From the NCBI GenBank assembly GCA_030614005.1, contig JAUWKS010000031.1, positions 1-32,000 of the forward strand: DNA of 32,000 bases, in the 5' to 3' direction. The notes under the pieces are model-generated. The model did no database searches and was not told the DNA's origin. It was given only the letters and a program-made list of their open reading frames with translations. Below, piece after piece: positions 3 to 29,206 of this stretch. Every line of letters begins with the position of its first letter. Position 1 is the first letter of the stretch. The DNA is from Candidatus Heimdallarchaeota archaeon (GTDB lineage Archaea > Asgardarchaeota > Heimdallarchaeia > JABLTI01). The position numbers and the translations under genes were made by a program.

Positions 3-677
3 GCAGCAAACAATACTCTTCCTAAAGAAGATCTGAGTATTAATTTAATCCCTAATGGAACTGCAGGAATGGATTGGACCTTAAAAGAAGTGCTTAGTGG
101 TTTAACAATGAGTTTTTCATCATTCGCGGGTAAAGTAGTATTGCTTGAATTTTTCGAAACTACGTGCCCCCCTTGTTTAACGTTTTTAAAAGAGTTAAGA
201 GAAGTAAGAACCCAGTTTTCTTCGAGCGAATTAATTATGATTAGTGTTGATACTAATCCGGTTGAGAGTGAAGCTGAAATACAAGTATATGCTGAAGAAC
301 AGGATATAGATTGGTACATTTTTAGTGATACAGCTGGAATTCAAATTTTCTATGAGATAGCACAAATTCCCACATTTTACATTTTTAATAGTGACCAAAA
401 AGTCGTTTATTCAAATGATTTTCCAACAGATGCTGAAATTATAATAAGTGAAATAAACGTACTTTTAGACAGTCCACAAACGTCTACAAATCCTAATGGT
501 GAGCCAATTCCAGATTTTTGGGCTAGAAATTGGTATTGGTTTGTTATAGGTGGAGTTCTTCTCATTATTAGCGTGGGCATATCTGTGCAGAGGATAAGAA
601 TAGTAAATCATAATAAAAAAGTGCGCCAACAAAAAGCAGAAGAAAAACAGCGAAAATACAATAAGAGATATCATTAA
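3..677 (+). CDS. TlpA/ResA-like thiol-disulfide oxidoreductase (redoxin) with C-terminal membrane anchor; probably 5'-truncated by the window edge
   Basis: CPPC motif in VVLLEFFETTCPPC context; cis-Pro motif QIPTFY; C-terminal hydrophobic helix then basic tail. The frame is open from position 3 (AANNTLPKEDL...) with no stop before the ATG at 69. Confidence 0.8.
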   Translation, partial: AANNTLPKEDLSINLIPNGTAGMDWTLKEVLSGLTMSFSSFAGKVVLLEFFETTCPPCLTFLKELREVRTQFSSSELIMISVDTNPVESEAEIQVYAEEQDIDWYIFSDTAGIQIFYEIAQIPTFYIFNSDQKVVYSNDFPTDAEIIISEINVLLDSPQTSTNPNGEPIPDFWARNWYWFVIGGVLLIISVGISVQRIRIVNHNKKVRQQKAEEKQRKYNKRYH

Positions 678-1421: not shown

Positions 1422-1527
1422 ATAACTGGTGTTACGATTAAATATTGCGAGGAAACCAAAATTTTATTATCTCTACTTCTGTGTAAGCGTAGTAGATATA
1501 TGAAATTAGACAGATAGATAGGAGCAA

Positions 1528-3546
1528 TTGTTCTTGCAGCGAAAAAAAGTACTTTTAGTTAGTGGCATCATTACAGTTTTACTATTTGTAATCCAGATTG
1601 GTTTAGTTGCTGGTATTACTTTAATGGTTGACCCGAGCAATGATGTTCAATATTATGAAGATGCGGTGTACAAGAAAAAGGGGAATTTTCACGAAGAAAT
1701 TGATATTATTGGTATCACCTTTGTTGGTCTGAAAATTAATCTTCACTTAGAGGACACACCTGTTATTAATGATGGAAAACATTTCTATCAAGTGGAAATC
1801 TATTGGAATTCCGGAACGTATGCCAATAGTACTGTGATAAAAGTTGGCGGTGTTTTAGGTCAAGATTATGAGGACACTATTACCACTAATTTAGTGAATG
1901 GAACCGGACACAGTATTGAATCATATCCGCTTTCTTACCCATTAGTATCTGAGAATTCTACTATCGTGTCTTCTAATAAGCTAACTTGGGAATTATACAT
2001 AAATGATATTTCAAATGTTGCAAAACCAGCAATAGTGAATGCAACATCTTATTACAAATCAGTTACCGATGATGGAACAAATGAATACAAGGATTTTGCT
2101 TCTAGTGAAGATGCTCCTCCGATATTCAGCACAGCAAATCTCTTACCACTTATAGGGACACTTTTAGTCTGTGGATTTGCCGGCTATACTCTAGGATCAA
2201 TTACTGTATATTATTTAACTACAAATATCAAAGCAAAAGAAAAGAATGCACTATTCATGGGTGCAACAACATTTTTACTTGCAATTGTAGTCAATTGGCT
2301 TTTCTGGGTAACCCCCTGGCAGATTCTCTGGAATGCCATTATTTACCTACTAGCTACCGTTTTTGGCTTTATTTGGGCAAATAGAGGGATAATGAAGATT
2401 AAATTTCAATCACCATTACCCGACGGATTACCAATTGAATCTGACGAAAAGAAGAATGCAGTAATTATTCTTGCGAAAGGTGAATCTGAAGAATACACTC
2501 CAATACCAATGATTAGAAAATTCAACGCAAAAGTAGAAACAGGCGTACCTCAAAAGGGTAAGTTATTGCAACCATTCGAGTTCTTTAAGGTTAAGAGGAA
2601 ATATGCTAAGATTAGTGGTTCATTAGACGAACTTTCCGCAGAAGAGATACGAGGAAATATTGGTGGAAATCCATACAAGAAAATAATGAAGAAAGTAGTC
2701 AAAAAAATAGAAGGCTCATTCTTAGATGTGGATGAATATCAAGAAGCTTTTGTCAATGATTGGCCTACTCTTAATCAAGCATTATTGCGTACAATATCTA
2801 TTGGTGCTGACAATATAACAATTCTTAATTTATTTATGGCAGATAACTTCGAATATCAATTAGCCATCGATGAAATGAAAAGAATTGATTTCTCACAAAT
2901 AGGTGTAACAATTAAGATAACAGATTTTCTAGCAAAATCAGCAGACATGCAATCATATATTGCTAAGAAAGTAACAGAAGCTGTTCCTGAACACTTAGCT
3001 AAAGATAAAGTAGGAATTATTCTTGTTGCTGATGGACAACCAACACAATGGGATAAAACGTATCCTTTAACTGAAGAAGAAAACAATTTCGTAACTGGCA
3101 TTAAAGGAAAATTGCAAAAAGCCGGTTTCAGGGAAAGATTAATCCTAAGTGCTTGGATAGAAGAACGAGATCCGACTATCATTGATGCATTCAACGACCT
3201 CAAAGAATCAAAATGTATAACCATCGTTACCGTAGCAACAACAACTCCAGTTGATTGTATAGACTCATTGGTAGAAGTTGCAATGGCCCTAGAAAAACCA
3301 GCAAAAGATGCAGATATTGATCTTATCTCAGTAGGTGCATGGAATGATGATGAAGAAGTAATTAATGCCTATCTCGGTTTAATAACTGAAGCAAAAGAAA
3401 TGCCTCTAGAAGAATTAGGTCAAGATGCTTCAATTGTCCTCCAAGCCACAACCACTGGAGCAAAACTATCTAATGCACAAGAGGAAGTAGAAAAAGTTCC
3501 TGCTAAGGAAGATTCTGAGTCAGAAAAATCTGAAGAAGAACAATAA
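1528..3546 (+). CDS. Membrane protein: signal/TM + extracellular beta-rich domain + 3 TM + C-terminal ferrochelatase (HemH)/class II chelatase-like domain
   Basis: TTG start after GGAG; hydrophobic N-terminus; three hydrophobic segments mid-protein; chelatase-like motifs VIILAKG, VGIILVADGQP and VDCIDSLVEV, with catalytic positions apparently substituted. Confidence 0.65.
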   Translation: MFLQRKKVLLVSGIITVLLFVIQIGLVAGITLMVDPSNDVQYYEDAVYKKKGNFHEEIDIIGITFVGLKINLHLEDTPVINDGKHFYQVEIYWNSGTYANSTVIKVGGVLGQDYEDTITTNLVNGTGHSIESYPLSYPLVSENSTIVSSNKLTWELYINDISNVAKPAIVNATSYYKSVTDDGTNEYKDFASSEDAPPIFSTANLLPLIGTLLVCGFAGYTLGSITVYYLTTNIKAKEKNALFMGATTFLLAIVVNWLFWVTPWQILWNAIIYLLATVFGFIWANRGIMKIKFQSPLPDGLPIESDEKKNAVIILAKGESEEYTPIPMIRKFNAKVETGVPQKGKLLQPFEFFKVKRKYAKISGSLDELSAEEIRGNIGGNPYKKIMKKVVKKIEGSFLDVDEYQEAFVNDWPTLNQALLRTISIGADNITILNLFMADNFEYQLAIDEMKRIDFSQIGVTIKITDFLAKSADMQSYIAKKVTEAVPEHLAKDKVGIILVADGQPTQWDKTYPLTEEENNFVTGIKGKLQKAGFRERLILSAWIEERDPTIIDAFNDLKESKCITIVTVATTTPVDCIDSLVEVAMALEKPAKDADIDLISVGAWNDDEEVINAYLGLITEAKEMPLEELGQDASIVLQATTTGAKLSNAQEEVEKVPAKEDSESEKSEEEQ

Positions 3547-4684: not shown

Positions 4685-7600
4685 TTATATATTGGAGAAA
4701 TGAATTGTTATTTCTGTTCCTTTTCCTTCTTCACTTTCCAATGTAATATGACCATTGTGTGCTTGGATAATTTTTACTACAATTAACAATCCAAAAGATG
4801 AATAACGTTTTGTACTCCAAGACTCTATAATTTCCTTCTTCTTCTCATTTGAAATTCCTTTTCCATCATCTTTGATAATTATCCGTAACTCATCTCTATC
4901 CTTTTCGAATTTAATTTCAAGCTTTGAAGCTTCTGCATGTTTAACTATATTCATCATTAGATTTTCAAAAACTTGTCCTAGTTTCATCGGATCTCCGATT
5001 ATCGTAGGTAGTTTGTCAATTTTAATTTCAAGCTCAGGTTTTAATGAACAAACCCTTGTTTTTATATTTTCAACTAAATCATTTAGATTTACTTTTACTT
5101 TTTCCCCAAGAAATTCACCTTTTTTAGCTAGAAGTAATAAATCTTCGATAAAATCAGACATATCTTCAATACTTTCAGTAATTTTATGGCTATATTCTGT
5201 TTCAGACATTGAATTATATAAAGAAATAATTTGCATTTTTCCCCTAAGGTCATGTGCAATCGTTGAAGCGAACGATTCCAATTCATCTCTCTGTTTTTGT
5301 AATTCAATTTGTTGATTTTGTAGTTTCATTTCTACAGCTATTCTTTCAGTAATATCTGTTATTACCGCATATGTTCCTAGGAATTTCCCATCTGCATCCA
5401 AAATTGCTTTCGGAGAAACAATTGTCGGTATTAGTTTTCCATCTTTTCTTTTCCAATTGACTTCATATGGTCGATAAACACCCTTTTTCCTTTCATTGTT
5501 TTCCATTAAATATAATTCTTGACTTGCTTCATCTAAAAACTCAAATGCTTTTTTACCTACCATCTCTTCTTGGCTATAACCAAGCATTTCACTATATTTA
5601 ACATTGACATAGGTAATAAGACCATTTTCATCATCCATTCCAAAACCGTCATTCATTGATTCTACAAGATCTCTGAACCGCTCTTCACTTTCTTGAAGTT
5701 CTTCTTCTGTAAACTTTCGAAGCAATGCAACAGATGTTTGACTACAAAAAGCTTCAATAAGTTCTATGTTTTCTATTTGCTTTCCTTTTTTCATTACAAC
5801 GAGGACTGTTTCGGATACTTTTCCATCTTCACTAAAATCAAAAGAATACATATCACCTAGATTCAGCAATTTCCATAGAATTGTGCTTTGCTTTTTGCTT
5901 ATCGAGTTATTCGTAAGTTCATCAAGAGTGCAAGGGAGTTTTTTCATTTTTCCTATACTTTCCGCATTTAGATAACTCTTAGCTACTTTTACGGATATTT
6001 TATCTTGATTTTGCCCCAAAATATTAACAAGACCGTTTAAGTATCGGTTTATTCCTATTATTGCAGAAGCAGAAAATGTGTCACTTTCTTCATTATAAGA
6101 AGAGAAAATTACTATAGAATCTCCTGCGAGTTCATTTATTTTTTCAGCGATGAAATGATAAATATCCTTATCAGATGATAATCCAACAAATTCCATAGCG
6201 GAGTTTGAAATAAATCTCAAAGTGTTAATGTGTCTTGTTCTAATTTCTTCGACAATTTTCTTTTGAGTAATATCTCTGAAGATGATTTGTATTAGTTGTT
6301 TATCCCCAATTTCAATATAGTTTGCAGTAATTTCTACAGTGAATACTTTGTCTAACTGATTTCTTAAATCCATCTCAAATTTGGTAAATTTATTGTTTTG
6401 TAAATTCTTTATTTGCTCAAGAAATCTCTTTACATTTTGCTGAGGTAAAATATCAGTAATTTTTTTCTCTCGTAGAATATCTTCTTTAAATCCTAAAAAT
6501 TCCTCTGCTTTTTGGTTATTATCTATTATATCCAATTCAGGACTAAAAATAACAATTCCATCATTCGAATCACTAAATAAAATGCGATATTTTTCTTCAC
6601 TGTCATGCAAATCTTTCTCAGCTTTTCTTCTCAACAAAGCAACAGCGGTTTGATTTGCAAATGCTGAAAGTAATTCTCTATTTGGTAGATCTTTATTTTC
6701 TTTTACAGTAGGTGATATAAGAACTGAACCAAATAGTTTGCCTTTATGAGTAAAAGATACTGTATATATATCAGTTATTTTATGCAATTTGCGAATTAAT
6801 TTCTCCTGAACTTTAGAGATAAAGCCATTTGAAAGTTTATTCAATGTCATATTGAATTTCCCAATTGGATTAGCCTTAACAAAATCTCGAACATCTTTAG
6901 TAAGCTTCATTTTTATTCCAATTAGATCTATATTAAGAATTTTTTTAATTTCATTTTTTCGAAGTCCTATGAGAGTTTGTGTTGAGAAAATTTCGCTCTC
7001 ACTTTCATACGAAAATGTAATTACTATTGATTCCCCAACAATCTCTCTAATCTTCAATCCAATATATTCATAGATATTTTCATTTAACGGAAGACTTACG
7101 AAATTAACTGCAGTCTGGGAAAGGAACATTAGATCATTTATTCGTTTTTCCTTTTCCTCTTCCAATTCCACTTTTTGAGATACATCTCGGAAAATCACTT
7201 GAATATAATGCTTACCCTCTAGCTCAATTAATCTCGCATTAATTTCAGAAAGAAATTGAAAATTACTTTTTGTTTCTATATAAAGATTGAAGTTAGCATT
7301 ACCGGTTTCAATAATTTTCTTATAATAAACTGAAAAGCTTCGTTCATTCTTTTTGTTAATGAAATCACTGAACATCATAGTTTCCAATTCTTCTTGTGAG
7401 AATCCAAGAATTTCTGAAGATTTTTTGTTTGTGTCAATAATATTTCCTTGGAAATCAAACAATATTATTCCATCATTTAAATTATCTAGTAATCTTCTAG
7501 TGTTTTGTTCATTTTCTCTTAATTGTATTTCCATTTCTTTTTGTTCAGTTATATCACGAATAATCGTTATAACTCTAACAACTTCTCCATCTTCAATAAC

Positions 7601-9616
7601 AGGTATTTTTCTAGTTTCATTCATTACTTTGAAATCACTTACATAAGAAGTATCTTCTGAAATTACAATTTGCTTATTTTCAATTGCTTGTTTATATTCT
7701 TCACTGACACTCTTTGGCAGAAATGGAAAGACATCAAAAATTTTCTTACCAATAATATTGGAGTCAACATCCAAATTTTCAAGCCAATCTCTGAGACTTT
7801 TATTAGTTAGAATAATTCGCAAATCCTTATCTGCAACATGGATAGGTACACCCATTGAGTCTAAGGTTGAGCGATAGTTTTCTTCTGACATTACTAATGC
7901 GTTATTTGTTAACATCTCAGTTGTTCTATCTGTTACAAATATAAATCGATTAACAACATTTTCATCCTCATAAGCATAGTAGATTTTATTCTGAATGTAT
8001 TTCCTTTCACCATTTTGAGTTATAGTCCAGAAAGATGCTTCTTCAACCTGCTTACCTTCATCCCTTACTTTTTTTAATAATAACTCTAACTGAGGTTTTT
8101 CTTCAGGTGCGCATATCTCTAACAAATCAAAATTCATTAATTCTTCCATTGATCGACCATAAATTTCACATGTTTTATTGTTTAGAAATACTATATTATC
8201 CTTTTCAGCAATGATTATTCCTTGATCAACATTTTCTAATAATCTTTTATAGCGCGTTTGAAAAATTTTCAACGATTCTTGGGTTTTTATTTCATTGGTA
8301 ATGTCAATACCTGAGCTGAGGATACCAATTATTCTATTTTGCTGGTCTCTACGAATACCTGTTTTCCATCGAATAATTCTCTCTTCACCTGATTTTTTTA
8401 CAATTGGATTTGTTACTGTAGATATAGATTCGGGTTTTCCATTCATTAAAGCTTTAAATCTGGTATATACAATATTCCTATTTTTCTCAGGAACGAAATT
8501 TTCATACCAATTTTTACCTATGATTTCATCCTCTGAACGACCAAGAATCTCGCATCCTGTTCTATTTATCGTAACAACATTAGCGTTACAGTCTAATGAA
8601 ATAATCAGCGCATCAGCAAGATTGAGATATTTTTGTGTTCGATTTTTTTCTTCCATTAGATTTTGAGTCATTTGATATTGATTGCTAAATAACCGTGCAT
8701 TTTGAATGGAAACAGCAGCAACATTAGCCATGCCAGAAAGTAATTCAATATCAGCTTTAGAATAGGCATCATATCTATAACTTTGAACTTGCAAAACACC
8801 AATTATCTCACCAGCTATTTTCATTGGTACATAAACAGCTGACTTTGTAATTCCATCACTAGATGAAGATTTATCTAATTCCTCATTATCATTACTTCCG
8901 TTAGTGTTCTTATAAAAATCGGATTTGTATACGACTTCCCCTGATTCAATTACTTTTGTTTGTATTTCGCTTTCTCTGTGACCCAAAGGAATCGGTGGGA
9001 ACATCATTATGTCTAATACATTGCCTTCAATGAGTGTATAACCGTGTGAAATTGTTTTGTTTTCTTTGTTATAAAAATCAACAACGAATGTATCTGCGTC
9101 CATAATTGCATAAATATATTGAAATACAGTTTTGTAGATTTTATTTAAATCTCGAGTATCTCCAAGAGTTAATGCTAACTTATTGATTGAAATTTGCTGT
9201 TCAAGCAATCTTTTGCGTGCGAAATCTATTTGTTTTTTCTCGACTAATTTTTCAATTAAATTGACCAATTCTCTGAATTGACTTCTCGTCTCTCCTCCTT
9301 TTTGGAGGTAATAATCTGCACCAAGATTAAGTGCTTGGATGGCTACTTCTTCTCTGCCTTTACCTGTGAAAATTATAAAAGGAGTTTCGTTTCCCAAATC
9401 TCGTAATTTGGCAAGAAAATCTAAACCATTCATTTCTGGCATTTGGTAATCGGAAATTATAATATCAAAAGTTGTTGATTTTAATTTTGCTAGAGCCTTT
9501 TTTGCTGAATTAATTGGATAGATTTGAAATTTCTCGCTAAGTTTCTCTAAATAGAGTTTAGATGCATCTAGAAGTGTTTCTTCATCATCTACCAGCAAGA
9601 TTTCTATAATGTTCAA
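4685..9616 (-). CDS. Hybrid sensor histidine kinase: REC-GAF-4xPAS-GAF-like-PAS-GAF-like-PAS-HisKA-HATPase
   Basis: N-terminal receiver (LLVDDE, IISDYQMP, FTG, YLQKG); six PAS-like segments ending in DIT/DRT/DVS; H-box AHDLR, N-box FENLMMN, G1 DDGKG; TTG start after GAGG. Confidence 0.92.
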   Translation of the reverse strand: MNIIEILLVDDEETLLDASKLYLEKLSEKFQIYPINSAKKALAKLKSTTFDIIISDYQMPEMNGLDFLAKLRDLGNETPFIIFTGKGREEVAIQALNLGADYYLQKGGETRSQFRELVNLIEKLVEKKQIDFARKRLLEQQISINKLALTLGDTRDLNKIYKTVFQYIYAIMDADTFVVDFYNKENKTISHGYTLIEGNVLDIMMFPPIPLGHRESEIQTKVIESGEVVYKSDFYKNTNGSNDNEELDKSSSSDGITKSAVYVPMKIAGEIIGVLQVQSYRYDAYSKADIELLSGMANVAAVSIQNARLFSNQYQMTQNLMEEKNRTQKYLNLADALIISLDCNANVVTINRTGCEILGRSEDEIIGKNWYENFVPEKNRNIVYTRFKALMNGKPESISTVTNPIVKKSGEERIIRWKTGIRRDQQNRIIGILSSGIDITNEIKTQESLKIFQTRYKRLLENVDQGIIIAEKDNIVFLNNKTCEIYGRSMEELMNFDLLEICAPEEKPQLELLLKKVRDEGKQVEEASFWTITQNGERKYIQNKIYYAYEDENVVNRFIFVTDRTTEMLTNNALVMSEENYRSTLDSMGVPIHVADKDLRIILTNKSLRDWLENLDVDSNIIGKKIFDVFPFLPKSVSEEYKQAIENKQIVISEDTSYVSDFKVMNETRKIPVIEDGEVVRVITIIRDITEQKEMEIQLRENEQNTRRLLDNLNDGIILFDFQGNIIDTNKKSSEILGFSQEELETMMFSDFINKKNERSFSVYYKKIIETGNANFNLYIETKSNFQFLSEINARLIELEGKHYIQVIFRDVSQKVELEEEKEKRINDLMFLSQTAVNFVSLPLNENIYEYIGLKIREIVGESIVITFSYESESEIFSTQTLIGLRKNEIKKILNIDLIGIKMKLTKDVRDFVKANPIGKFNMTLNKLSNGFISKVQEKLIRKLHKITDIYTVSFTHKGKLFGSVLISPTVKENKDLPNRELLSAFANQTAVALLRRKAEKDLHDSEEKYRILFSDSNDGIVIFSPELDIIDNNQKAEEFLGFKEDILREKKITDILPQQNVKRFLEQIKNLQNNKFTKFEMDLRNQLDKVFTVEITANYIEIGDKQLIQIIFRDITQKKIVEEIRTRHINTLRFISNSAMEFVGLSSDKDIYHFIAEKINELAGDSIVIFSSYNEESDTFSASAIIGINRYLNGLVNILGQNQDKISVKVAKSYLNAESIGKMKKLPCTLDELTNNSISKKQSTILWKLLNLGDMYSFDFSEDGKVSETVLVVMKKGKQIENIELIEAFCSQTSVALLRKFTEEELQESEERFRDLVESMNDGFGMDDENGLITYVNVKYSEMLGYSQEEMVGKKAFEFLDEASQELYLMENNERKKGVYRPYEVNWKRKDGKLIPTIVSPKAILDADGKFLGTYAVITDITERIAVEMKLQNQQIELQKQRDELESFASTIAHDLRGKMQIISLYNSMSETEYSHKITESIEDMSDFIEDLLLLAKKGEFLGEKVKVNLNDLVENIKTRVCSLKPELEIKIDKLPTIIGDPMKLGQVFENLMMNIVKHAEASKLEIKFEKDRDELRIIIKDDGKGISNEKKKEIIESWSTKRYSSFGLLIVVKIIQAHNGHITLESEEGKGTEITIHFSNI

Positions 9617-9787: not shown

Positions 9788-11248
9788 GTGAACAAAATGG
9801 ACTTTGAGGTTGTTTATAATAAGAAAAGTGCTGAGTTTGATAAAACAAAATTAGCTAAAAAATTGATAGCTATTTTTGGAGAAGCGAATGTTTCACAAAA
9901 AGAAATTGATATTCTTTCCTACAGTAAAGATTTCATATTATTATCTGCTCGGTGGACACTAGATGGCAAAGTAGCTGCCAAACCGGACTTTATAGTTTGG
10001 CCAACTTCTGCAAAACAGATCAGTGACTTGCTTATATTAGCAAATAAAGTAAAAGTGCCCATTGTTCCTTTTGGTGCTGGGAGTGGTGTTGTAGGTGGAG
10101 CGTTACCAATTTTAGGTGGCGTTATTGTTGATATGAAAAAAATGGATAAATTGTTAGAAATCAACGATCAAAACTTGACAGCAACCATCCAAACTGGTAA
10201 GAATGGAATGAATATTGAAAGAGATTTGAATAATAAAGGATATACCCTCGGGCATATCCCGCAAAGTATTTTTACTTCAACATTGGGTGGTTACCTTGCC
10301 CACAAAGCAGCAGGACAGTTTAGCACAAAATACGGAAAAATAGAAGATATGATCATTAGCTTTGAAGCAGTTCTTCCCACTGGTGAAATTATTAAATCAA
10401 AAGCTGCCCCAAGAACTTCTGTAGGACCTCAAGTAGATAAATTACTAATTGGTTCAGAAGGGACTTTAGCAATTATAACAGAAGCTACTGTAAGAATTTG
10501 GCCTCAACCTGAGAAAAGAGCATTGGTCTCTTTTGCTTTTGAAAAAATGGAAGATGCCCTGAATTCAGTCAGGGAGATTTTGCGAAAACAAGTATATCCA
10601 GCAGTAGTGCGTATTTATGATAGTGATGAAACTGAAAGACATTTTGGTAGCGAGAAAAACTACAAAGATCGATGTATGACCATTTTTGTATGCGAAGGTG
10701 ATACAGATGTTGTTGCACTCGAAGAAAAAGTCACAAAACAAATTTGCCTGAAAAACTTTGGCATTGATTGTGGGGAAGCACCTGTCGAGCATTGGTTTGA
10801 AACTCGATTCAATGTAAGTGAAATCTCAAAATACACTCCTATTGGTGTAATCGTTGATACTATTGAAGTAGCAATTATGTGGGATGGTGCTGCGAATCTC
10901 TATTATGAAACAATTAAAGCAATGAAGAAGGTACCTGGTGTTGTTACAGCAACGGGATATGTATCTCATGCTTATCCACAAGGTGTGGGATTTTATTTCT
11001 CTTTTAGTGGTGTCCCTGATAAACAAAGTCCTGAGGGTTTCTCAAAAGCAGTTTGGGATATAACTATGGAATCAACAGTAAAGTCTGGAGGTTCAATAGC
11101 ACATCACCATGGAGTAGGTGTTGTTCGATCAGCATGGATGGAAGCCGAATGGGGAAGTATTATGCCCTTATTGAAGAAAATTAAGAAAGCCTTGGATCCA
11201 AAGAATATCCTTAATCCTGGGAAATTATATGATGGACCAATTGAATAA
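9788..11248 (+). CDS. FAD-binding oxidoreductase of the VAO/GlcD family, alkyl-dihydroxyacetonephosphate synthase (ADAPS/AGPS)-like
   Basis: PFGAGSGVVGG FAD loop, GHIPQS...STLGG, KYGKIEDM, GSEGTLAIIT, SHAY, IAHHHGVG and DPKNILNPGK. Likely start is the ATG at 9797 after a GGTGA RBS. Confidence 0.85.
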   Translation: MNKMDFEVVYNKKSAEFDKTKLAKKLIAIFGEANVSQKEIDILSYSKDFILLSARWTLDGKVAAKPDFIVWPTSAKQISDLLILANKVKVPIVPFGAGSGVVGGALPILGGVIVDMKKMDKLLEINDQNLTATIQTGKNGMNIERDLNNKGYTLGHIPQSIFTSTLGGYLAHKAAGQFSTKYGKIEDMIISFEAVLPTGEIIKSKAAPRTSVGPQVDKLLIGSEGTLAIITEATVRIWPQPEKRALVSFAFEKMEDALNSVREILRKQVYPAVVRIYDSDETERHFGSEKNYKDRCMTIFVCEGDTDVVALEEKVTKQICLKNFGIDCGEAPVEHWFETRFNVSEISKYTPIGVIVDTIEVAIMWDGAANLYYETIKAMKKVPGVVTATGYVSHAYPQGVGFYFSFSGVPDKQSPEGFSKAVWDITMESTVKSGGSIAHHHGVGVVRSAWMEAEWGSIMPLLKKIKKALDPKNILNPGKLYDGPIE

Positions 11249-11260
11249 AGGTGAAAGTGG

Positions 11261-12520
11261 ATGTCTCTTATTAAAAAGCTAAAAAAGTACGGCTGGATAG
11301 TTAAAGCAATCGCCCAGACGAAATTTTCCACAAAGAGAACTATGGCAAAAGGATTAAGAAACAAGAAAAACTATTTTCCGAAAAAAAAGGTAAAAGCTGA
11401 TGTTCAAAATCTGATGAATTGTGCTCTTTGTCCAAATATGTGTCGATTCGATTGCCCGACCGTTCAAGCTTCGAAAAAAGAAACACATTCACCTGCAATG
11501 AAAGCCAAGATTGGTTATTATCTCGAGATGGACTATTTAGAAAAGGTGGATGAGAACATCATACCACTTTTTGAAGGATGTGTTCATTGTTCGGGATGCA
11601 AAATTTGGTGCCCATTTGATTTTGCTGTAGGAGATCTGCTTGATGGCGTTGCTGCAGATTTATTTGAACAAGACGTTCTGCCACAACCAATCAAAAACTT
11701 CTCTCAAAGAATTAGAGACAATAATGGATTGTATAAAAAAGAACATTACATTTCAGCAACGAAAACCCTGGAAGCATTCAAAGAAGGCGACATTTACTAT
11801 TTTCCAGGTTGTGTGACAATGGGAAATAATGCAAAAGTAATTGAGAGTATCAAAATTATTGCTGAAAAATCTTCTAGCTCAATAATTGCAAAACCAGAAG
11901 AACGATGGTGTTGTGGCGCACCTTCAATATATGCTGGGGATGTTGATAAAGCAAAAGAATTAGCTTCACATAATTCTGAACATATTAAGTCATTAGATAT
12001 AAAAGCTATCATTTGTGAATGTCCAGAATGTACTCATATGTTGAAAGAACAATATCCTCAACTGGGTTTTGATCTAAAAATTCCTGTTTATCATGTTGCT
12101 GAATGGGTGAATATTCTACTTAAGGAGAAAAAAATAGCACTTAAGAATGGCGAAGAATTGGTGGACTATAAAGATAGTTTACCAATTAGCTTCCATGATC
12201 CCTGTGTTTTAGCAAGAAAATTGGATGTAGCTGAACAACCAACAGAAATCATGAAGCTTATGTTTCCAGAGAAATTCAAAGAGAATGCTTATTCAAAAGA
12301 AAACACTCATTGTTGTGGATTTGGTGGTCTGGTGAATATCGTTAATCCTGATTTAGCTCTGAAAATGGCAAAAAACCGTTTGGACGAGTTCTCGCAAGAT
12401 AATATTAAAACAATTGTGACTAGCTGCCCAACTTGTTGGTATAGTTTTATGAAAGCAAATGAGAATTTTGAGTTCGAAATTCGCGATTTACTTGAAATAA
12501 TTGCAGAATTAATAGAATAA
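11261..12520 (+). CDS. (Fe-S)-binding protein, GlpC/GlcF/HdrD-like (4Fe-4S dicluster + two CCG domains)
   Basis: CALCPNMCRFDCP and CVHCSGCKIWCP; YFPGC, WCCG, CPEC; FHDPC, HCCG, SCPTC. Lies 12 bp after the upstream stop, so probably co-transcribed. Confidence 0.9.
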   Translation: MSLIKKLKKYGWIVKAIAQTKFSTKRTMAKGLRNKKNYFPKKKVKADVQNLMNCALCPNMCRFDCPTVQASKKETHSPAMKAKIGYYLEMDYLEKVDENIIPLFEGCVHCSGCKIWCPFDFAVGDLLDGVAADLFEQDVLPQPIKNFSQRIRDNNGLYKKEHYISATKTLEAFKEGDIYYFPGCVTMGNNAKVIESIKIIAEKSSSSIIAKPEERWCCGAPSIYAGDVDKAKELASHNSEHIKSLDIKAIICECPECTHMLKEQYPQLGFDLKIPVYHVAEWVNILLKEKKIALKNGEELVDYKDSLPISFHDPCVLARKLDVAEQPTEIMKLMFPEKFKENAYSKENTHCCGFGGLVNIVNPDLALKMAKNRLDEFSQDNIKTIVTSCPTCWYSFMKANENFEFEIRDLLEIIAELIE

Positions 12521-19883: not shown

Positions 19884-21158
19884 TTGCTACGGGAACTAAA
19901 TGAGCTGGAATACATTGGTTATGCATTAGGCCAACCTTTCAATGTTGCAGTGATGCTCAAACTTCAAGGTCAAATATCAGCTGATTTGTTAGTTTCAACA
20001 CTATCCAAACTTCAGAAGAGGCACCCATTATTACAGACTAGAATTATTTTCGATGATAAACAGCGCCCTTGGCTAACTTCTGAAGGAGTTGGTTCAATTC
20101 CAGTAACAATTATAGCTCGAGAGAATGAGTCTCAAGGTATAGATGAACTAAACAGACAACTAGCAACTTCTTTTGATCTTGAAAATGAAGAATTGCCATT
20201 AGCGAGAGTTATTTTATTTTCATCACCTGAAAGATCTGAATTGATCATTTGTGCTCTTCATATCATAACAGACGGAATGTCTATGACTCATTTTATTAAA
20301 GACTTTGTAAAATACATGGCGAATCCAGATGAACCAATAATACCATTAGAATTACCAACTAAGGATATTAATCCATTAACAAAGAAAGTATTAAGAATAA
20401 TTCCGAAATCAAAATTGTCTGTATATGTGATTTATGCTTTTTTAAGAATCTACAATTTTACTAGGTATCTATTTACAGGTAGAAGAAAAACAGCTAAATT
20501 CAACATACAAGAAAAAGACATGGCAGTCTATTCTTGTCAATTTAATCAAAAACAAACACAAGAATTCTTAGAGAGAAGCAAAAAGGAAAAAGTTTCTATT
20601 CATAGCTCTTTATGTACAGCGTTTTTATCTGAATATCCAATAATAGCTACTACAGTAAACCTTAGAAAAAGATTAAGACATAAAATAGGAGAGTCATTTG
20701 GTTTTTACTCAAGTGTTATTGTTTTTAATAAAAGATATAATAAATCTCAAGGTTTTTGGAGCAATGCTCGTAAGTTTCAAAGAAAATTGCGCTGGAATTT
20801 ACGAGATAGAAAGGTGTATCTAATTCACAGACTCCTTCTAAAGAAAGCTTCATTTAAGTTTCTACAAAAAATAAGCACATATTATACTGAAATTGCTACA
20901 AATAAGAATCCTTTTTCAGTCAACAATCTTGGTTCGTTGGAAGATTTTGCTCAAACTATTGACAATGAAGATTTTATTAAAATAGATTCATTTTTTGGTG
21001 GAGTCACTAGTTTTCTCAATACATTTATTGTTCTGGTCTATACTTTTAGAAATGAAATGCATTTACATTATCACTATCCAACTGAGCTTTATTCTTTAGA
21101 TAATATAATTTCTATCTCTGAAACAGCTAAAGAAAGAATATTGAATGCACTAAAATGA
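19884..21158 (+). CDS. Condensation-domain/CoA-dependent acyltransferase (PapA5/alcohol acetyltransferase-like)
   Basis: N-terminal RELNELE, LQKRHPLLQTRI, PLARV and catalytic HIITDG (HxxxDG); C-terminal SVNNLG. Confidence 0.8.
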   Translation: MLRELNELEYIGYALGQPFNVAVMLKLQGQISADLLVSTLSKLQKRHPLLQTRIIFDDKQRPWLTSEGVGSIPVTIIARENESQGIDELNRQLATSFDLENEELPLARVILFSSPERSELIICALHIITDGMSMTHFIKDFVKYMANPDEPIIPLELPTKDINPLTKKVLRIIPKSKLSVYVIYAFLRIYNFTRYLFTGRRKTAKFNIQEKDMAVYSCQFNQKQTQEFLERSKKEKVSIHSSLCTAFLSEYPIIATTVNLRKRLRHKIGESFGFYSSVIVFNKRYNKSQGFWSNARKFQRKLRWNLRDRKVYLIHRLLLKKASFKFLQKISTYYTEIATNKNPFSVNNLGSLEDFAQTIDNEDFIKIDSFFGGVTSFLNTFIVLVYTFRNEMHLHYHYPTELYSLDNIISISETAKERILNALK

Positions 21159-26462: not shown

Positions 26463-26621
26463 AATGATGAGATACAAAAAACTGATGCTCTACAAAAACA
26501 ATATGATTCTTTTGATGCTAAAGCTTCTGATTGTTCATAATGTGGTGACTTTATAGAACGTTGTCCATTTGAAGTGCAAGTTATAGAAAAAATGAAAGAA
26601 GCAGCTACGTTGTTTGAGTAG
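26463..26621 (+). pseudogene. Remnant of a C-terminal 4Fe-4S domain, resembling aldo/keto reductase-ferredoxin fusion C-termini
   Basis: Translates as NDEIQKTDALQKQYDSFDAKASDCS*CGDFIERCPFEVQVIEKMKEAATLFE*. In-frame TAA at 26538-26540 and Cys->Phe in the CxxCxxCxxxCP motif. Confidence 0.7.
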
Positions 26622-27867
26622 ATGCTTTTATTTTTTTATTCTTAACTAAGATAAATCTCATTTTCATAAAATCAAAAGTAAGTGCATAATGTCTAAAGAA
26701 TTGATGTGAAATAATACCCCCAATGCGAAATCCTACTGAATATTCAATGGGAAATCTTTCGGTGAAAACTCCTCGAATGTTCTTTTCAACAGCATCACCA
26801 AATGTTAATTCCTCCACTTCGAATGGTATAGCCTTAACTTTCCCTCCACCACCTATCCCTTCGAAAGCATTTGCTTCATCGAGTTTTACCCCTGCATCAT
26901 CAAGAGTTTTTCTAGCGCCGGTAAATCCTCCACCAGCTAAACCTGTATCTAGGAAGAATAGTGTTCGTTCGCCTTTATTGACTCTACCCCAAGCAACCAT
27001 AAAGTGATCTTCTGCCATCCAAAATGGTATTTTAATTGGTTTTTTGTTTTCAATTGCTTTCTCTAAGGTTGTTAAATTTTCCTTAGTTTGTTTTCGAAAA
27101 ATTATTTCACCTTTTGGATAATCTAAAGTGGTAATAAAATGATAAAAAAGAACTGTACCAATAATACCATCAATTTGTGTTCCACCAAAAATCTGAGAAA
27201 CAGGACGAACTGGCAGAATTTTTACTGGAATGTTCTGCACTTTCAAATTACCTAAAGAAATAGACTCTATCTTACTCAAATAAGTAGTTGCTTTTTGACC
27301 TCCTGCAAACACCCCTGTTTTTTCTCCAAATGATTCCAGTTTAATTTCTTTAGCAAAATCTGCATCAATCATTATTTCTGCTGCTCCGGTATCTACAAGA
27401 AAGTTCACTTCTTTGTGATCATTTATTTTCACTTTTACTATTGGTAATGGATCGACTTGCTCCATTTTTACTTTGAAAACAGTTTTTTCACCTTCAATTT
27501 GATATGGTACACTACCTTTGAAGCTCTCCAATCTTTCAGCCATATCGTCAATACCATAAAACCTTAGATGGTCTGCTGCTTCTTTGAATTTATCTTGTCT
27601 GTAATTAACTTCTGCTAGCAATGCATGAGGTGCTGGTTCCTCTGGTTCAACTTTCATTGCTTTCTTTAACCACTTCTCAGCTTCTTTGAATTTATTCGAA
27701 ATTAGTGCAATATTTCCCAAAAGAACTAATGTTTGAAAATCAGTTGGGTTTTCTTTTAATATTTTTAAGAAAGACTTCTTCGCATCAACAAAGTATCCCG
27801 TTTGAAATTGAATATTTGCAATTACTGTTGGATCAAAATTACCACTATCATTTTTCATTTTTCTCAA
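26605..27867 (-). CDS. TPR + tandem retropepsin-like aspartyl protease (two DTG motifs)
   Basis: N-terminal TPR helices (AKKSFLKILKENPTDFQTLVLLG; AEKWLKKAMKVEPEE); FLVDTGA with DGIIG, and FFLDTGL with GGIIS. Confidence 0.85.
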   Translation of the reverse strand: MRKMKNDSGNFDPTVIANIQFQTGYFVDAKKSFLKILKENPTDFQTLVLLGNIALISNKFKEAEKWLKKAMKVEPEEPAPHALLAEVNYRQDKFKEAADHLRFYGIDDMAERLESFKGSVPYQIEGEKTVFKVKMEQVDPLPIVKVKINDHKEVNFLVDTGAAEIMIDADFAKEIKLESFGEKTGVFAGGQKATTYLSKIESISLGNLKVQNIPVKILPVRPVSQIFGGTQIDGIIGTVLFYHFITTLDYPKGEIIFRKQTKENLTTLEKAIENKKPIKIPFWMAEDHFMVAWGRVNKGERTLFFLDTGLAGGGFTGARKTLDDAGVKLDEANAFEGIGGGGKVKAIPFEVEELTFGDAVEKNIRGVFTERFPIEYSVGFRIGGIISHQFFRHYALTFDFMKMRFILVKNKKIKASTQTT

Positions 27868-28231: not shown

Positions 28232-29206
28232 ATGGTTGTTGTTACAGGGACTAAAGCAAATGGTGAGCAATTTAGTAGAGAAATAGAAGATGATGTACAA
28301 GAACTTTTTCTTGAAGGTCATCAACTTATTTCAATTGATTTGTCATCATTAAATGAGTGTTCAAAATTACGTATTCTTAGGCTTTCTGATAATCTACTTG
28401 CATCAATAGATCTTTCCCCACTTCAAGCTTGCACAGATCTACAAGAGCTCTGGCTTCATAGAAATAGGCTTACCACTATAGATTTATCCCCATTGAAAGC
28501 TTGCAAAACTTTACAACAGCTCGATCTTGGATATAACCCATTTACTTCAATAGACCTTTCTCCATTGAAAGCTTGCAAAGAACTTCAAATACTCTGGTTT
28601 GATAATAACCCTCTTACTTTAATTGACCTTTCCCCACTTGAAGCGTGTACAGAATTACAAGAGCTTATGCTTGATAATAATCAGCTTGCATCGATTGACC
28701 TTTCTCCATTGAAAACGTGCACAAAATTGCAAGCACTCTTGATTGGTAATAATCCGTTTACTTCTATTGATCTTTCTCCGTTGAAAGCATGCACAAAATT
28801 GAAAGCGCTCAAACTTTATAGTACTCCGCTCACTTCTATTGATTTATCTCCACTGAAAACATGCACCGAGTTGGAATGCCTTGAGCTTGATAAAAATCAG
28901 CTTACTTCTATTGATCTTTCTCCTTTGAAAGCTTGCACAAAACTGCAAGAGCTTGTCCTTCCTAATAATCAGCTTGCTTCTATTGATCTATCACCAATGA
29001 AAGCATGTACTGAACTAGAATTTATCGAGCTTGATATTAATCAGCTAAAAAAGCTTGATATCACAGTTCTTAAAGCATGCATGAAATTAAAAGGGCTTTA
29101 TATTGATGATACTGTTACTCTTATTTGGCGAGAAGAAGATATTCCTGATAAGGATGACCTTCCTATAGGATTACAAGAACACTATTCTAGGTTAACATTT
29201 TCATAG
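28232..29206 (+). CDS. Leucine-rich repeat protein (11 x 24-aa repeats, SIDLSPLxxCxxLxxLxLxxN type)
   Basis: 72-bp periodicity; consensus LTSIDLSPLKACTxLxxLxLxxNx; no signal peptide or TM segment. Confidence 0.95.
   Translation: MVVVTGTKANGEQFSREIEDDVQELFLEGHQLISIDLSSLNECSKLRILRLSDNLLASIDLSPLQACTDLQELWLHRNRLTTIDLSPLKACKTLQQLDLGYNPFTSIDLSPLKACKELQILWFDNNPLTLIDLSPLEACTELQELMLDNNQLASIDLSPLKTCTKLQALLIGNNPFTSIDLSPLKACTKLKALKLYSTPLTSIDLSPLKTCTELECLELDKNQLTSIDLSPLKACTKLQELVLPNNQLASIDLSPMKACTELEFIELDINQLKKLDITVLKACMKLKGLYIDDTVTLIWREEDIPDKDDLPIGLQEHYSRLTFS
28325..29116 (+). repeat. Coding tandem repeat, 72-bp unit x 11 (last copy degenerate)
   Basis: ATT/ATA GAT codons recur at 28334, 28406 and onward; many synonymous differences between units. 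Confidence 0.9.

Follow-up and report, generated by a model that had tools for sequence, protein, structure and literature searches.

A predicted class II chelatase-fold domain with a His-free site, built into the membrane in a Heimdallarchaeota lineage

Class II chelatases are soluble or peripheral enzymes that complete the synthesis of haem, sirohaem, B12 and F430. The eukaryotic ferrochelatase works at a membrane face, and proteins of the class II chelatase fold that are non-catalytic or that bind haem also exist. Haem-auxotrophic nematodes retain ferrochelatase-like (FeCL) genes of unknown function (10.1101/236539). In this study, we analysed a 32,000-nucleotide stretch of DNA from a Candidatus Heimdallarchaeota archaeon (positions 1 to 32,000 of contig JAUWKS010000031.1, assembly GCA_030614005.1; hereafter the window) and focused on one forward-strand gene (Table 1) whose product joins a predicted extracellular domain, three transmembrane (TM) helices and a cytoplasmic domain that is predicted to have a chelatase fold and that has lost the histidines expected of its active site. 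A preliminary description, made from the letters of the sequence, had seen in it a receptor-like membrane protein carrying a catalytically altered ferrochelatase domain.

The C-terminal domain is predicted to have the two-lobed class II chelatase fold. A profile built from 64 family members and searched against the PDB matched Bacillus subtilis ferrochelatase over nearly the whole domain (E 3.5e-9). The AlphaFold2 (AF2) model of the domain has a predicted local distance difference test (pLDDT) of 88.4 and a predicted template modelling score (pTM) of 0.87, and its top Foldseek match is B. subtilis ferrochelatase 1doz (E 2e-12, probability 1.00, TM-score 0.64/0.72, ~340 aligned columns). Ferrochelatases come first in the Foldseek order, followed by CbiK and SirB, which are weaker than HemH. 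The ferrochelatase-type fold proposed in the preliminary description was thus borne out by the structure search. At the level of single sequences the signal is faint, with a PF00762 match at E 2.7e-4 and 20.5 bits (cut-off 27), a weak and sub-threshold score of 13.4 for TIGR00109, the NCBIfam hemH model (cut-off 124.6), and no match of the protein to PF01903. Some homologues just pass PF00762 (e.g., one at 27.7 bits) and some reach PF01903 (e.g., one at 29.8 bits). The Pfam and NCBIfam scan of the protein returned nothing besides the weak ferrochelatase match.

Hydropathy and Lys/Arg counts place the N-terminal anchor at residues ~9-29 and the TM helices at ~205-228, ~241-260 and ~266-284, in agreement with the signal/TM segment and the three helices described previously (residue numbers throughout follow the 672-amino-acid (aa) numbering from the TTG at position 1528). 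By charge and hydropathy, the basic N-terminus, the Lys-rich loop between TM1 and TM2 and the C-terminal domain with its acidic tail lie inside, and the acidic ectodomain and the short, uncharged, Trp-rich loop between TM2 and TM3 (WFWxTPWQILWN) lie outside. TM3 is followed by a basic stretch, a Pro-rich linker, the 340-residue soluble domain and the acidic tail that had already been noted. All four sequons reported for the beta-rich region (ANST, VNGT, ENST, VNAT) are present, and those at N100, N124, N143 and N171 are kept in 26, 20, 22 and 26 of the 26 full-length homologues, respectively. Sequon density is 5.3 per 175 aa in the ectodomain versus 0.9 per 353 aa in the C-terminal domain, and this excess suggests that the ectodomain is outside the cell and N-glycosylated. 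Hydropathy, charge and sequon counts therefore all back the topology first suggested, with a glycosylated domain outside and the chelatase-fold domain inside. Mean column identity is highest in the TM block (0.80), followed by the C-terminal domain (0.68) and the ectodomain (0.57). A homodimer prediction for the unit of TM helices and C-terminal domain scored 0.00, which is evidence in neither direction.

The union of TM helices and chelatase fold is shared far beyond this lineage. Searching exhaustively with phmmer for relatives of the C-terminal domain brought up over 100 proteins of ~405-420 aa (E 1e-23 to 1e-10), whose copy of the domain begins near residue 100. The first ~100 residues of these ~410-aa bacterial relatives are three TM helices, and hhalign aligned their TM block with that of the Asgard proteins at a probability of 92.5% (E 4.8e-7). 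The relatives share 20-28% identity with the Asgard protein and carry automatic names such as "protoheme ferro-lyase" and "sirohydrochlorin cobaltochelatase"; the closest cluster in the ESM Atlas comes from Chloroflexota (407 aa, "cobaltochelatase family", TM-score 0.83). They come mainly from Anaerolineae, to which the 80 best loci all belong (some bin labels being odd), and atlas clusters also place them in Actinomycetota and Bacillota. Among the Asgard proteins, short forms of ~484-498 aa keep the three TM helices without the signal anchor and the ectodomain; these are complete genes, since just 100 base pairs (bp) separate one of them from its upstream neighbour (locus L007). The conserved unit thus appears to be three TM helices leading directly into a cytoplasmic class II chelatase fold, in what looks from these comparisons to be a widespread and unstudied family. 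No description of a membrane-anchored class II chelatase or of the ~410-aa family was found in our literature search. The preliminary description had not recognised the architecture; this holds in so far as we found neither a Pfam or NCBIfam model nor a paper for it, but the fusion of three TM helices to a chelatase fold is itself widespread in bacteria, and the only Asgard-specific features are the added ectodomain and the His-free site.

The residues of that site were compared with the catalytic and metal-binding His of B. subtilis ferrochelatase (H183, human H263) and with the Glu of its D-H-x-E-T-L segment (E264, human E343). A hidden Markov model (HMM) alignment to B. subtilis HemH places D502 at His183, C577 at His262 and D579 at Glu264, which confirms the changes of His to Asp, His to Cys and Glu to Asp read from the sequence before. 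It had been suggested that an Asgard alignment would tell whether the Asp residues are conserved. Among 29 Asgard homologues, position 502 is always acidic or amide (E 19, D 8, N 2) and never His, and position 579 varies (D 13, N 10, E 3, H 1, others in the remainder). The position equivalent to His262 is Cys or Gly in the Asgard clade. The Anaerolineae clade, for its part, has six conserved His residues (H114, H166, H170, H228, H287 and H365 of the reference relative P0040), of which H287 and H365 correspond to the CbiK/HemH ligand positions. In the 29 Asgard sequences these six positions are, in order, K (27), Y (26), variable, E/D (26), E/D/N (29) and D/N/E (26), and the window protein has K317, Y383, E442, D502 and D579 at five of them. 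Further invariant polar residues in the Asgard domain are D411, Q504 and D509. A third bacterial group shows neither the six-His nor the Asgard pattern. Because the Asgard replacements are fixed and chemically coherent, the site looks re-tuned from imidazoles to mostly oxygen ligands and not simply decayed. The earlier label of pseudo-chelatase is correct as regards the loss of the canonical His/Glu pair, but it is too strong for an Asgard clade in which K, Y, E/D, E/D/N and D/N are maintained at five of these six sites.

To place the family in its metabolic context, 82 genomes of the class were surveyed, 12 of which represent the taxonomic family of the host. The gene family is present in all 12, and elsewhere in the class only a fragment at a contig end and one weak 423-aa form were seen. 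HemB (ALAD, PF00490) is absent from all 12 host-family genomes, including that of the host itself (90% complete), and is present in several other families of the same class. The host genome contains no other PF00762 or PF01903 match, and we found in it no genes for haem-copper oxidase (COX1), cytochrome bd or the maturation of cytochrome c; none of the 12 genomes yielded a cytochrome b. Proteins with a B12-binding domain, among them corrinoid proteins of ~220 aa, are encoded in 12 of 12. The host lineage looks like an obligate corrinoid scavenger without detectable cytochromes. HemB is likewise missing from four of the five Anaerolineae carriers examined, two of these four being chromosome-level assemblies. 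Its absence from every host-family genome and from most of these Anaerolineae makes a role in de novo tetrapyrrole synthesis very unlikely, perhaps across the whole family, and upholds the original suspicion that the protein is not a haem biosynthetic enzyme. We also considered whether the protein fills in for a missing B12 importer. No BtuCD was seen in the host genome, where the FecCD matches are ZnuB-type ATP-binding cassette (ABC)-3 permeases with ZnuA partners. This idea was dropped despite the lack of BtuCD because a PF09819 energy-coupling factor (ECF) S-component, which we take to be of the CbrT cobalamin-uptake type, is encoded in all 12 genomes.

The ectodomain appears to be a later, lineage-specific addition. 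Its AF2 model (pLDDT 83) is an all-beta sandwich. An exhaustive VIA search with this model ranked the Glucodextran_C domain of glucodextranase first (1ulv 777-1007, Z 9.0, root-mean-square deviation 4.2, 147 residues aligned); as the stated background of the method is Z 7-8, this value is just above it and is a lead rather than proof. Further matches were ethylbenzene dehydrogenase gamma (2ivf_C, Z 6.5), DOMON (4zel, Z 5.0) and CBM9 (1i82, Z 4.9). The DOMON-like superfamily includes Glucodextran_C, which is similar to CBM9 (PMC10074034). A Pfam scan of 25 ectodomains gave no match, Foldseek against the PDB gave nothing below E 0.05, and a language-model atlas search gave nothing usable. The domain has 4-5 conserved N-x-S/T sequons. 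It also has invariant D35, D39, D59, H85, Y87, W93, W154 and D189 and a nearly invariant E57, residues that would be in keeping with a binding module stabilised by Ca2+; H85, Y87, W93 and W154 are candidates for ligating haem or binding sugar. Most host-family genomes also encode one or more separate paralogues of this ectodomain, ~228 aa long, in which the domain stands between a signal peptide and a C-terminal TM anchor, and these small surface proteins are the likely source of the fused domain. In the host genome, one such 228-aa paralogue lies on contig C35 (about 113914-114600; locus L014:5915-6601, + strand). Since the three TM helices with the chelatase fold occur without an ectodomain in the sister Asgard forms and in every bacterial relative, the ectodomain is probably accessory.

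The coordinates of the gene and its parts are given in Table 1. The open frame was confirmed as a real gene with ~30 full-length homologues at 45-85% identity in Asgard bins labelled Heimdallarchaeota, Thorarchaeota or "Asgard group". Translation from the TTG at 1528 gives 672 aa. A second TTG at 1534 is the likelier start and gives 670 aa, since the homologues open with MQRKK and the GGAG is better spaced for it; the match of the family in a whole-genome search spans 1534-3519. A 106-bp A/T-rich gap separates the gene from the methyltransferase gene upstream, and its TATA-like stretch may act as a promoter. This gap, together with the T-run that follows the stop codon and precedes a 167-bp gap to the M19 dipeptidase gene, suggests that the T-run may act as a terminator and that the gene is monocistronic, with its own transcription unit. 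Public DNA sequencing runs that contain the gene are cold-seep and marine-sediment metagenomes; no RNA run containing it is listed.

Table 1. Parts of the membrane chelatase-fold gene and its flanking signals, in window coordinates.
Feature	Coordinates	Strand	Basis
Upstream region of the gene: A/T-rich TATA-like stretch (~1459-1472) and GGAG (1521-1524)	1459..1527	+	Sequence reading
Membrane protein gene	1528..3546	+	Open reading frame, homologues, whole-genome search
Basic N-terminus and hydrophobic signal anchor or signal peptide, residues 1-29	1528..1614	+	Hydropathy maximum 2.67; 3 K/R before, 4 D/E after
Extracellular all-beta domain, residues 30-204	1615..2139	+	AF2 model, sequon statistics
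Three TM helices and conserved Pro-rich linker, residues ~205-305	2140..2442	+	Column identity, profile-profile homology
Cytoplasmic class II chelatase-fold domain (predicted), residues ~306-645	2443..3462	+	Pfam, profile, AF2, Foldseek
Acidic, poorly conserved C-terminal tail and stop codon	3463..3546	+	Column identity 0.32
Likely archaeal terminator, T-rich run past the stop codon	3591..3606	+	Sequence reading

The order of O-methyltransferase, membrane chelatase-fold gene and M19 dipeptidase is kept at every Asgard locus examined, that of the short form included. The conservation extends to some ten unrelated genes on the flanks, whereas the M19 genes of the class's other families sit among different genes and lack the syntenic block. 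We rejected a functional operon on these grounds and on the gene's own start and stop signals, and the Asgard gene order is read as lineage synteny and not as a functional module. Among the 80 Anaerolineae loci there is a recurrent same-strand arrangement (e.g., L050:3640-7949) in which a 774-aa phosphoenolpyruvate (PEP)-utilising enzyme (PPDK_N and mobile domain) ends ~28 bp upstream of the relative in 40 loci and a PlsY-like acyltransferase starts ~28 bp downstream in 34, followed by a MacB-type ABC ATPase and permease. On one Anaerolineales contig (L009:4580-8431), the relative is flanked by genes for a Zn-ribbon protein, a CobW/COG0523 GTPase and ribosomal protein L33; CobW/COG0523 together with L33 is a pattern we presume to be typical of zinc-starvation regulons.

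Several other genes of the window deserve mention. A 1643-aa cytoplasmic hybrid sensor with an N-terminal receiver, a GAF domain, many PAS domains and a histidine kinase (4685-9616, - strand) is kept in position at most related Asgard loci and is missing near the short-form locus L007. At 3-677 (+ strand), the window encodes a TlpA/AhpC-type thioredoxin-fold protein that has a CPPC motif and, towards its C-terminus, a TM helix and a basic tail. It probably acts as a thiol-disulfide oxidoreductase outside the cytoplasm, and its gene lies upstream in some related loci and is missing from others. A link to cytochrome c maturation, raised by this TlpA-like protein and the Trp-rich loop, was rejected because no gene of the CcmC/CcmF/CcsA family was found and the thioredoxin is absent from some loci. 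The conserved syntenic block includes an FAD-linked oxidase (PF01565/PF02913) followed by a CCG/4Fe-4S protein (9788-12520, + strand), a pair resembling glycolate or D-lactate dehydrogenase. A 424-aa protein (19884-21158, + strand) has a condensation domain of the non-ribosomal peptide synthetase (NRPS) type (PF00668, E 5.5e-19) with no other NRPS modules nearby, which is unusual in an archaeon. A fusion of a tetratricopeptide repeat (TPR) protein with an aspartyl protease domain of the retropepsin-like type (26605-27867, - strand) adjoins a leucine-rich-repeat protein (28232-29206, + strand); such domains are eukaryote-flavoured and typical of Asgard genomes.

What the protein does can be addressed with graded confidence. 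We tentatively favour, with a confidence that falls somewhat short of even, a membrane-integrated protein that binds or handles either a metal or an exogenous tetrapyrrole. Its cleft, held to the inner membrane face by the conserved TM bundle and lined in this Asgard lineage with carboxylate, Lys and Tyr instead of imidazoles, would bind an externally acquired ligand of a type that the fold accommodates in other proteins, either a metallated tetrapyrrole (haem, or a corrinoid, for which the hosts have a need) or a metal ion, and the protein would hold this ligand or pass it on rather than carry out canonical His-dependent metal insertion. The analysis demonstrates the topology and architecture, the fold, the replaced residues, the distribution among genomes and the lack of the pathway, and we infer the binding, the identity of the ligand and any transfer step. 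The unit of three TM helices and chelatase fold would have gained, in one Asgard (Heimdall-type) lineage, its signal anchor and a glycosylated DOMON/CBM9-like ectodomain from small surface proteins, and this ectodomain would serve as an accessory surface module outside the core mechanism. As the hosts have no tetrapyrrole pathway, a role in finishing haem, sirohaem or B12 synthesis is not expected. Several observations weigh against a binder or handler. With a PF09819 S-component in all 12 host-family genomes, corrinoid import shows no evident gap to be filled. Of the six positions, the one aligned with Glu264 is the least constrained (D/N/E/H/L/A), the Asgard neighbourhood shows no tetrapyrrole or metal link, and the Anaerolineae neighbours (PEP-utilising enzyme, PlsY, MacB-type ABC transporter) are unrelated to tetrapyrroles. 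A far-reaching version, in which the whole family is a system by which tetrapyrrole-auxotrophic anaerobes import or process external tetrapyrroles, seems quite improbable to us; here, the DOMON-like ectodomain of the Asgard version would capture haem or corrinoid, a TM oligomer with the Trp-rich outer loop would pass it across, and the His-free domain would receive it or strip its metal.

The same residues could also serve a working chelatase or de-chelatase with carboxylate ligands, acting on porphyrin, haem or corrinoid that is salvaged and reaches it from the membrane. Three former His sites have become fixed as acidic or amide (E/D442, E/D/N502 and D/N579), D411, Q504 and D509 are invariant, a confident model shows an intact fold and cleft, and eukaryotic ferrochelatase likewise acts at a membrane face; in addition, the Anaerolineae kin keep the CbiK-like His pair, mostly without HemB, which hints at salvage across the family. 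We nevertheless consider such an enzyme unlikely, as both essential HemH/CpfC residues are changed, the Glu264 position varies, two sequences have Asn at the first ligand, no haem proteins were detected that would use the product, and we know of no class II chelatase with an all-carboxylate site. If metal alone were the ligand, the protein might be a membrane-tethered metal binder, chaperone or buffer, with a site rich in His to suit Zn/Co/Ni/Fe(II) in Anaerolineae and rich in carboxylates to suit a harder cation in Asgard. Six His in one clade versus carboxylates in the other resembles a change of metal preference, and metal receptors of the TroA/ZnuA type have a fold related to that of the chelatases. 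The CobW/COG0523 and L33 genes beside an Anaerolineales relative fit as well, but they occur at that one locus and are not among the recurrent neighbours in the 80 loci, and the window holds no metal-regulon signal; we find this version distinctly doubtful. Equally doubtful is the transmembrane receptor, in which the ectodomain would sense a ligand and the chelatase fold would signal inside, possibly to the giant response-regulator/GAF/PAS histidine kinase nearby. The ectodomain-TM-cytoplasmic layout, highly conserved TM helices, as one would expect of signal-transmitting ones, and a kinase two genes away in most loci speak for it; yet Pfam and NCBIfam detect no transmitter or output domain, the kinase lies on the opposite strand beyond the M19 gene and is absent near the short-form locus, and neither the short Asgard forms nor any bacterial relative has an ectodomain. 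The single-chain sensor of the preliminary description is weakened accordingly, since relatives that keep the three TM helices and the chelatase fold without an ectodomain indicate a core function that needs no outside sensor. Finally, the domain might be a structural pseudoenzyme that binds no ligand at all, such as a scaffold or anchor for membrane or surface proteins. Loss of the canonical catalytic residues, a host without the pathway and the persistence of ferrochelatase-like genes of no known function in haem-auxotrophic nematodes would agree with this, but many polar residues are strictly conserved and the former ligand sites stay acidic, arguing for a functional site, and we rate a scaffold as quite improbable.

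Handling of a scavenged tetrapyrrole or metal, if true, would fill a gap in how auxotrophic sediment microbes, including close kin of the eukaryotic ancestor, obtain or manage B12- or haem-type molecules. The family is a sizeable and unstudied branch of the chelatase superfamily, built into the membrane by three conserved helices and found mainly in organisms that are unable to make tetrapyrroles. The Asgard form adds a surface domain predicted to be glycosylated and a swap of His for carboxylate that appears to be maintained by selection. Automatic names such as "protoheme ferro-lyase" are misleading in this setting and would wrongly imply haem synthesis in Asgard metabolic reconstructions.

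What is new is the architecture, a fusion with an ectodomain, and the His-free site, both within a known fold superfamily. The ~410-aa bacterial family is the closest kin outside Asgard and has the same core, homologous over both the TM helices and the chelatase fold; it differs in having no ectodomain or signal anchor and other neighbouring genes, and its Anaerolineae members keep six His including the CbiK-like pair. HemH/CpfC (PF00762; 1doz/1ak1, human FECH) shares the two-lobed fold and a profile-level homology over nearly the whole domain, and eukaryotic FECH is, like the window protein, located at a membrane. The identity to HemH/CpfC is however only 13-16% and the match falls below the Pfam cut-off, its His183, His262 and Glu264 correspond to D/E/N, Cys/Gly and a variable position in the Asgard clade, and the Asgard protein, unlike HemH/CpfC, is fused to three TM helices and an ectodomain in a host without the pathway. 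CbiK, CbiX and SirB (PF01903, PF06180) belong to the same fold superfamily, which includes haem binders that have no part in biosynthesis, the periplasmic CbiK(P) 2xvx and FetB 9b86. They are smaller proteins of ~260 aa, soluble or exported, that have no TM bundle and use a His pair, which the window protein lacks. The DOMON-like superfamily provides the best structural matches of the ectodomain model (Glucodextran_C, ethylbenzene dehydrogenase gamma, DOMON and CBM9), although the ectodomain has no sequence match at the Pfam level and no significant Foldseek match. The nematode FeCL proteins offer a parallel of another kind: they are likewise ferrochelatase homologues, kept by haem-auxotrophic hosts, but they are eukaryotic and have another architecture.

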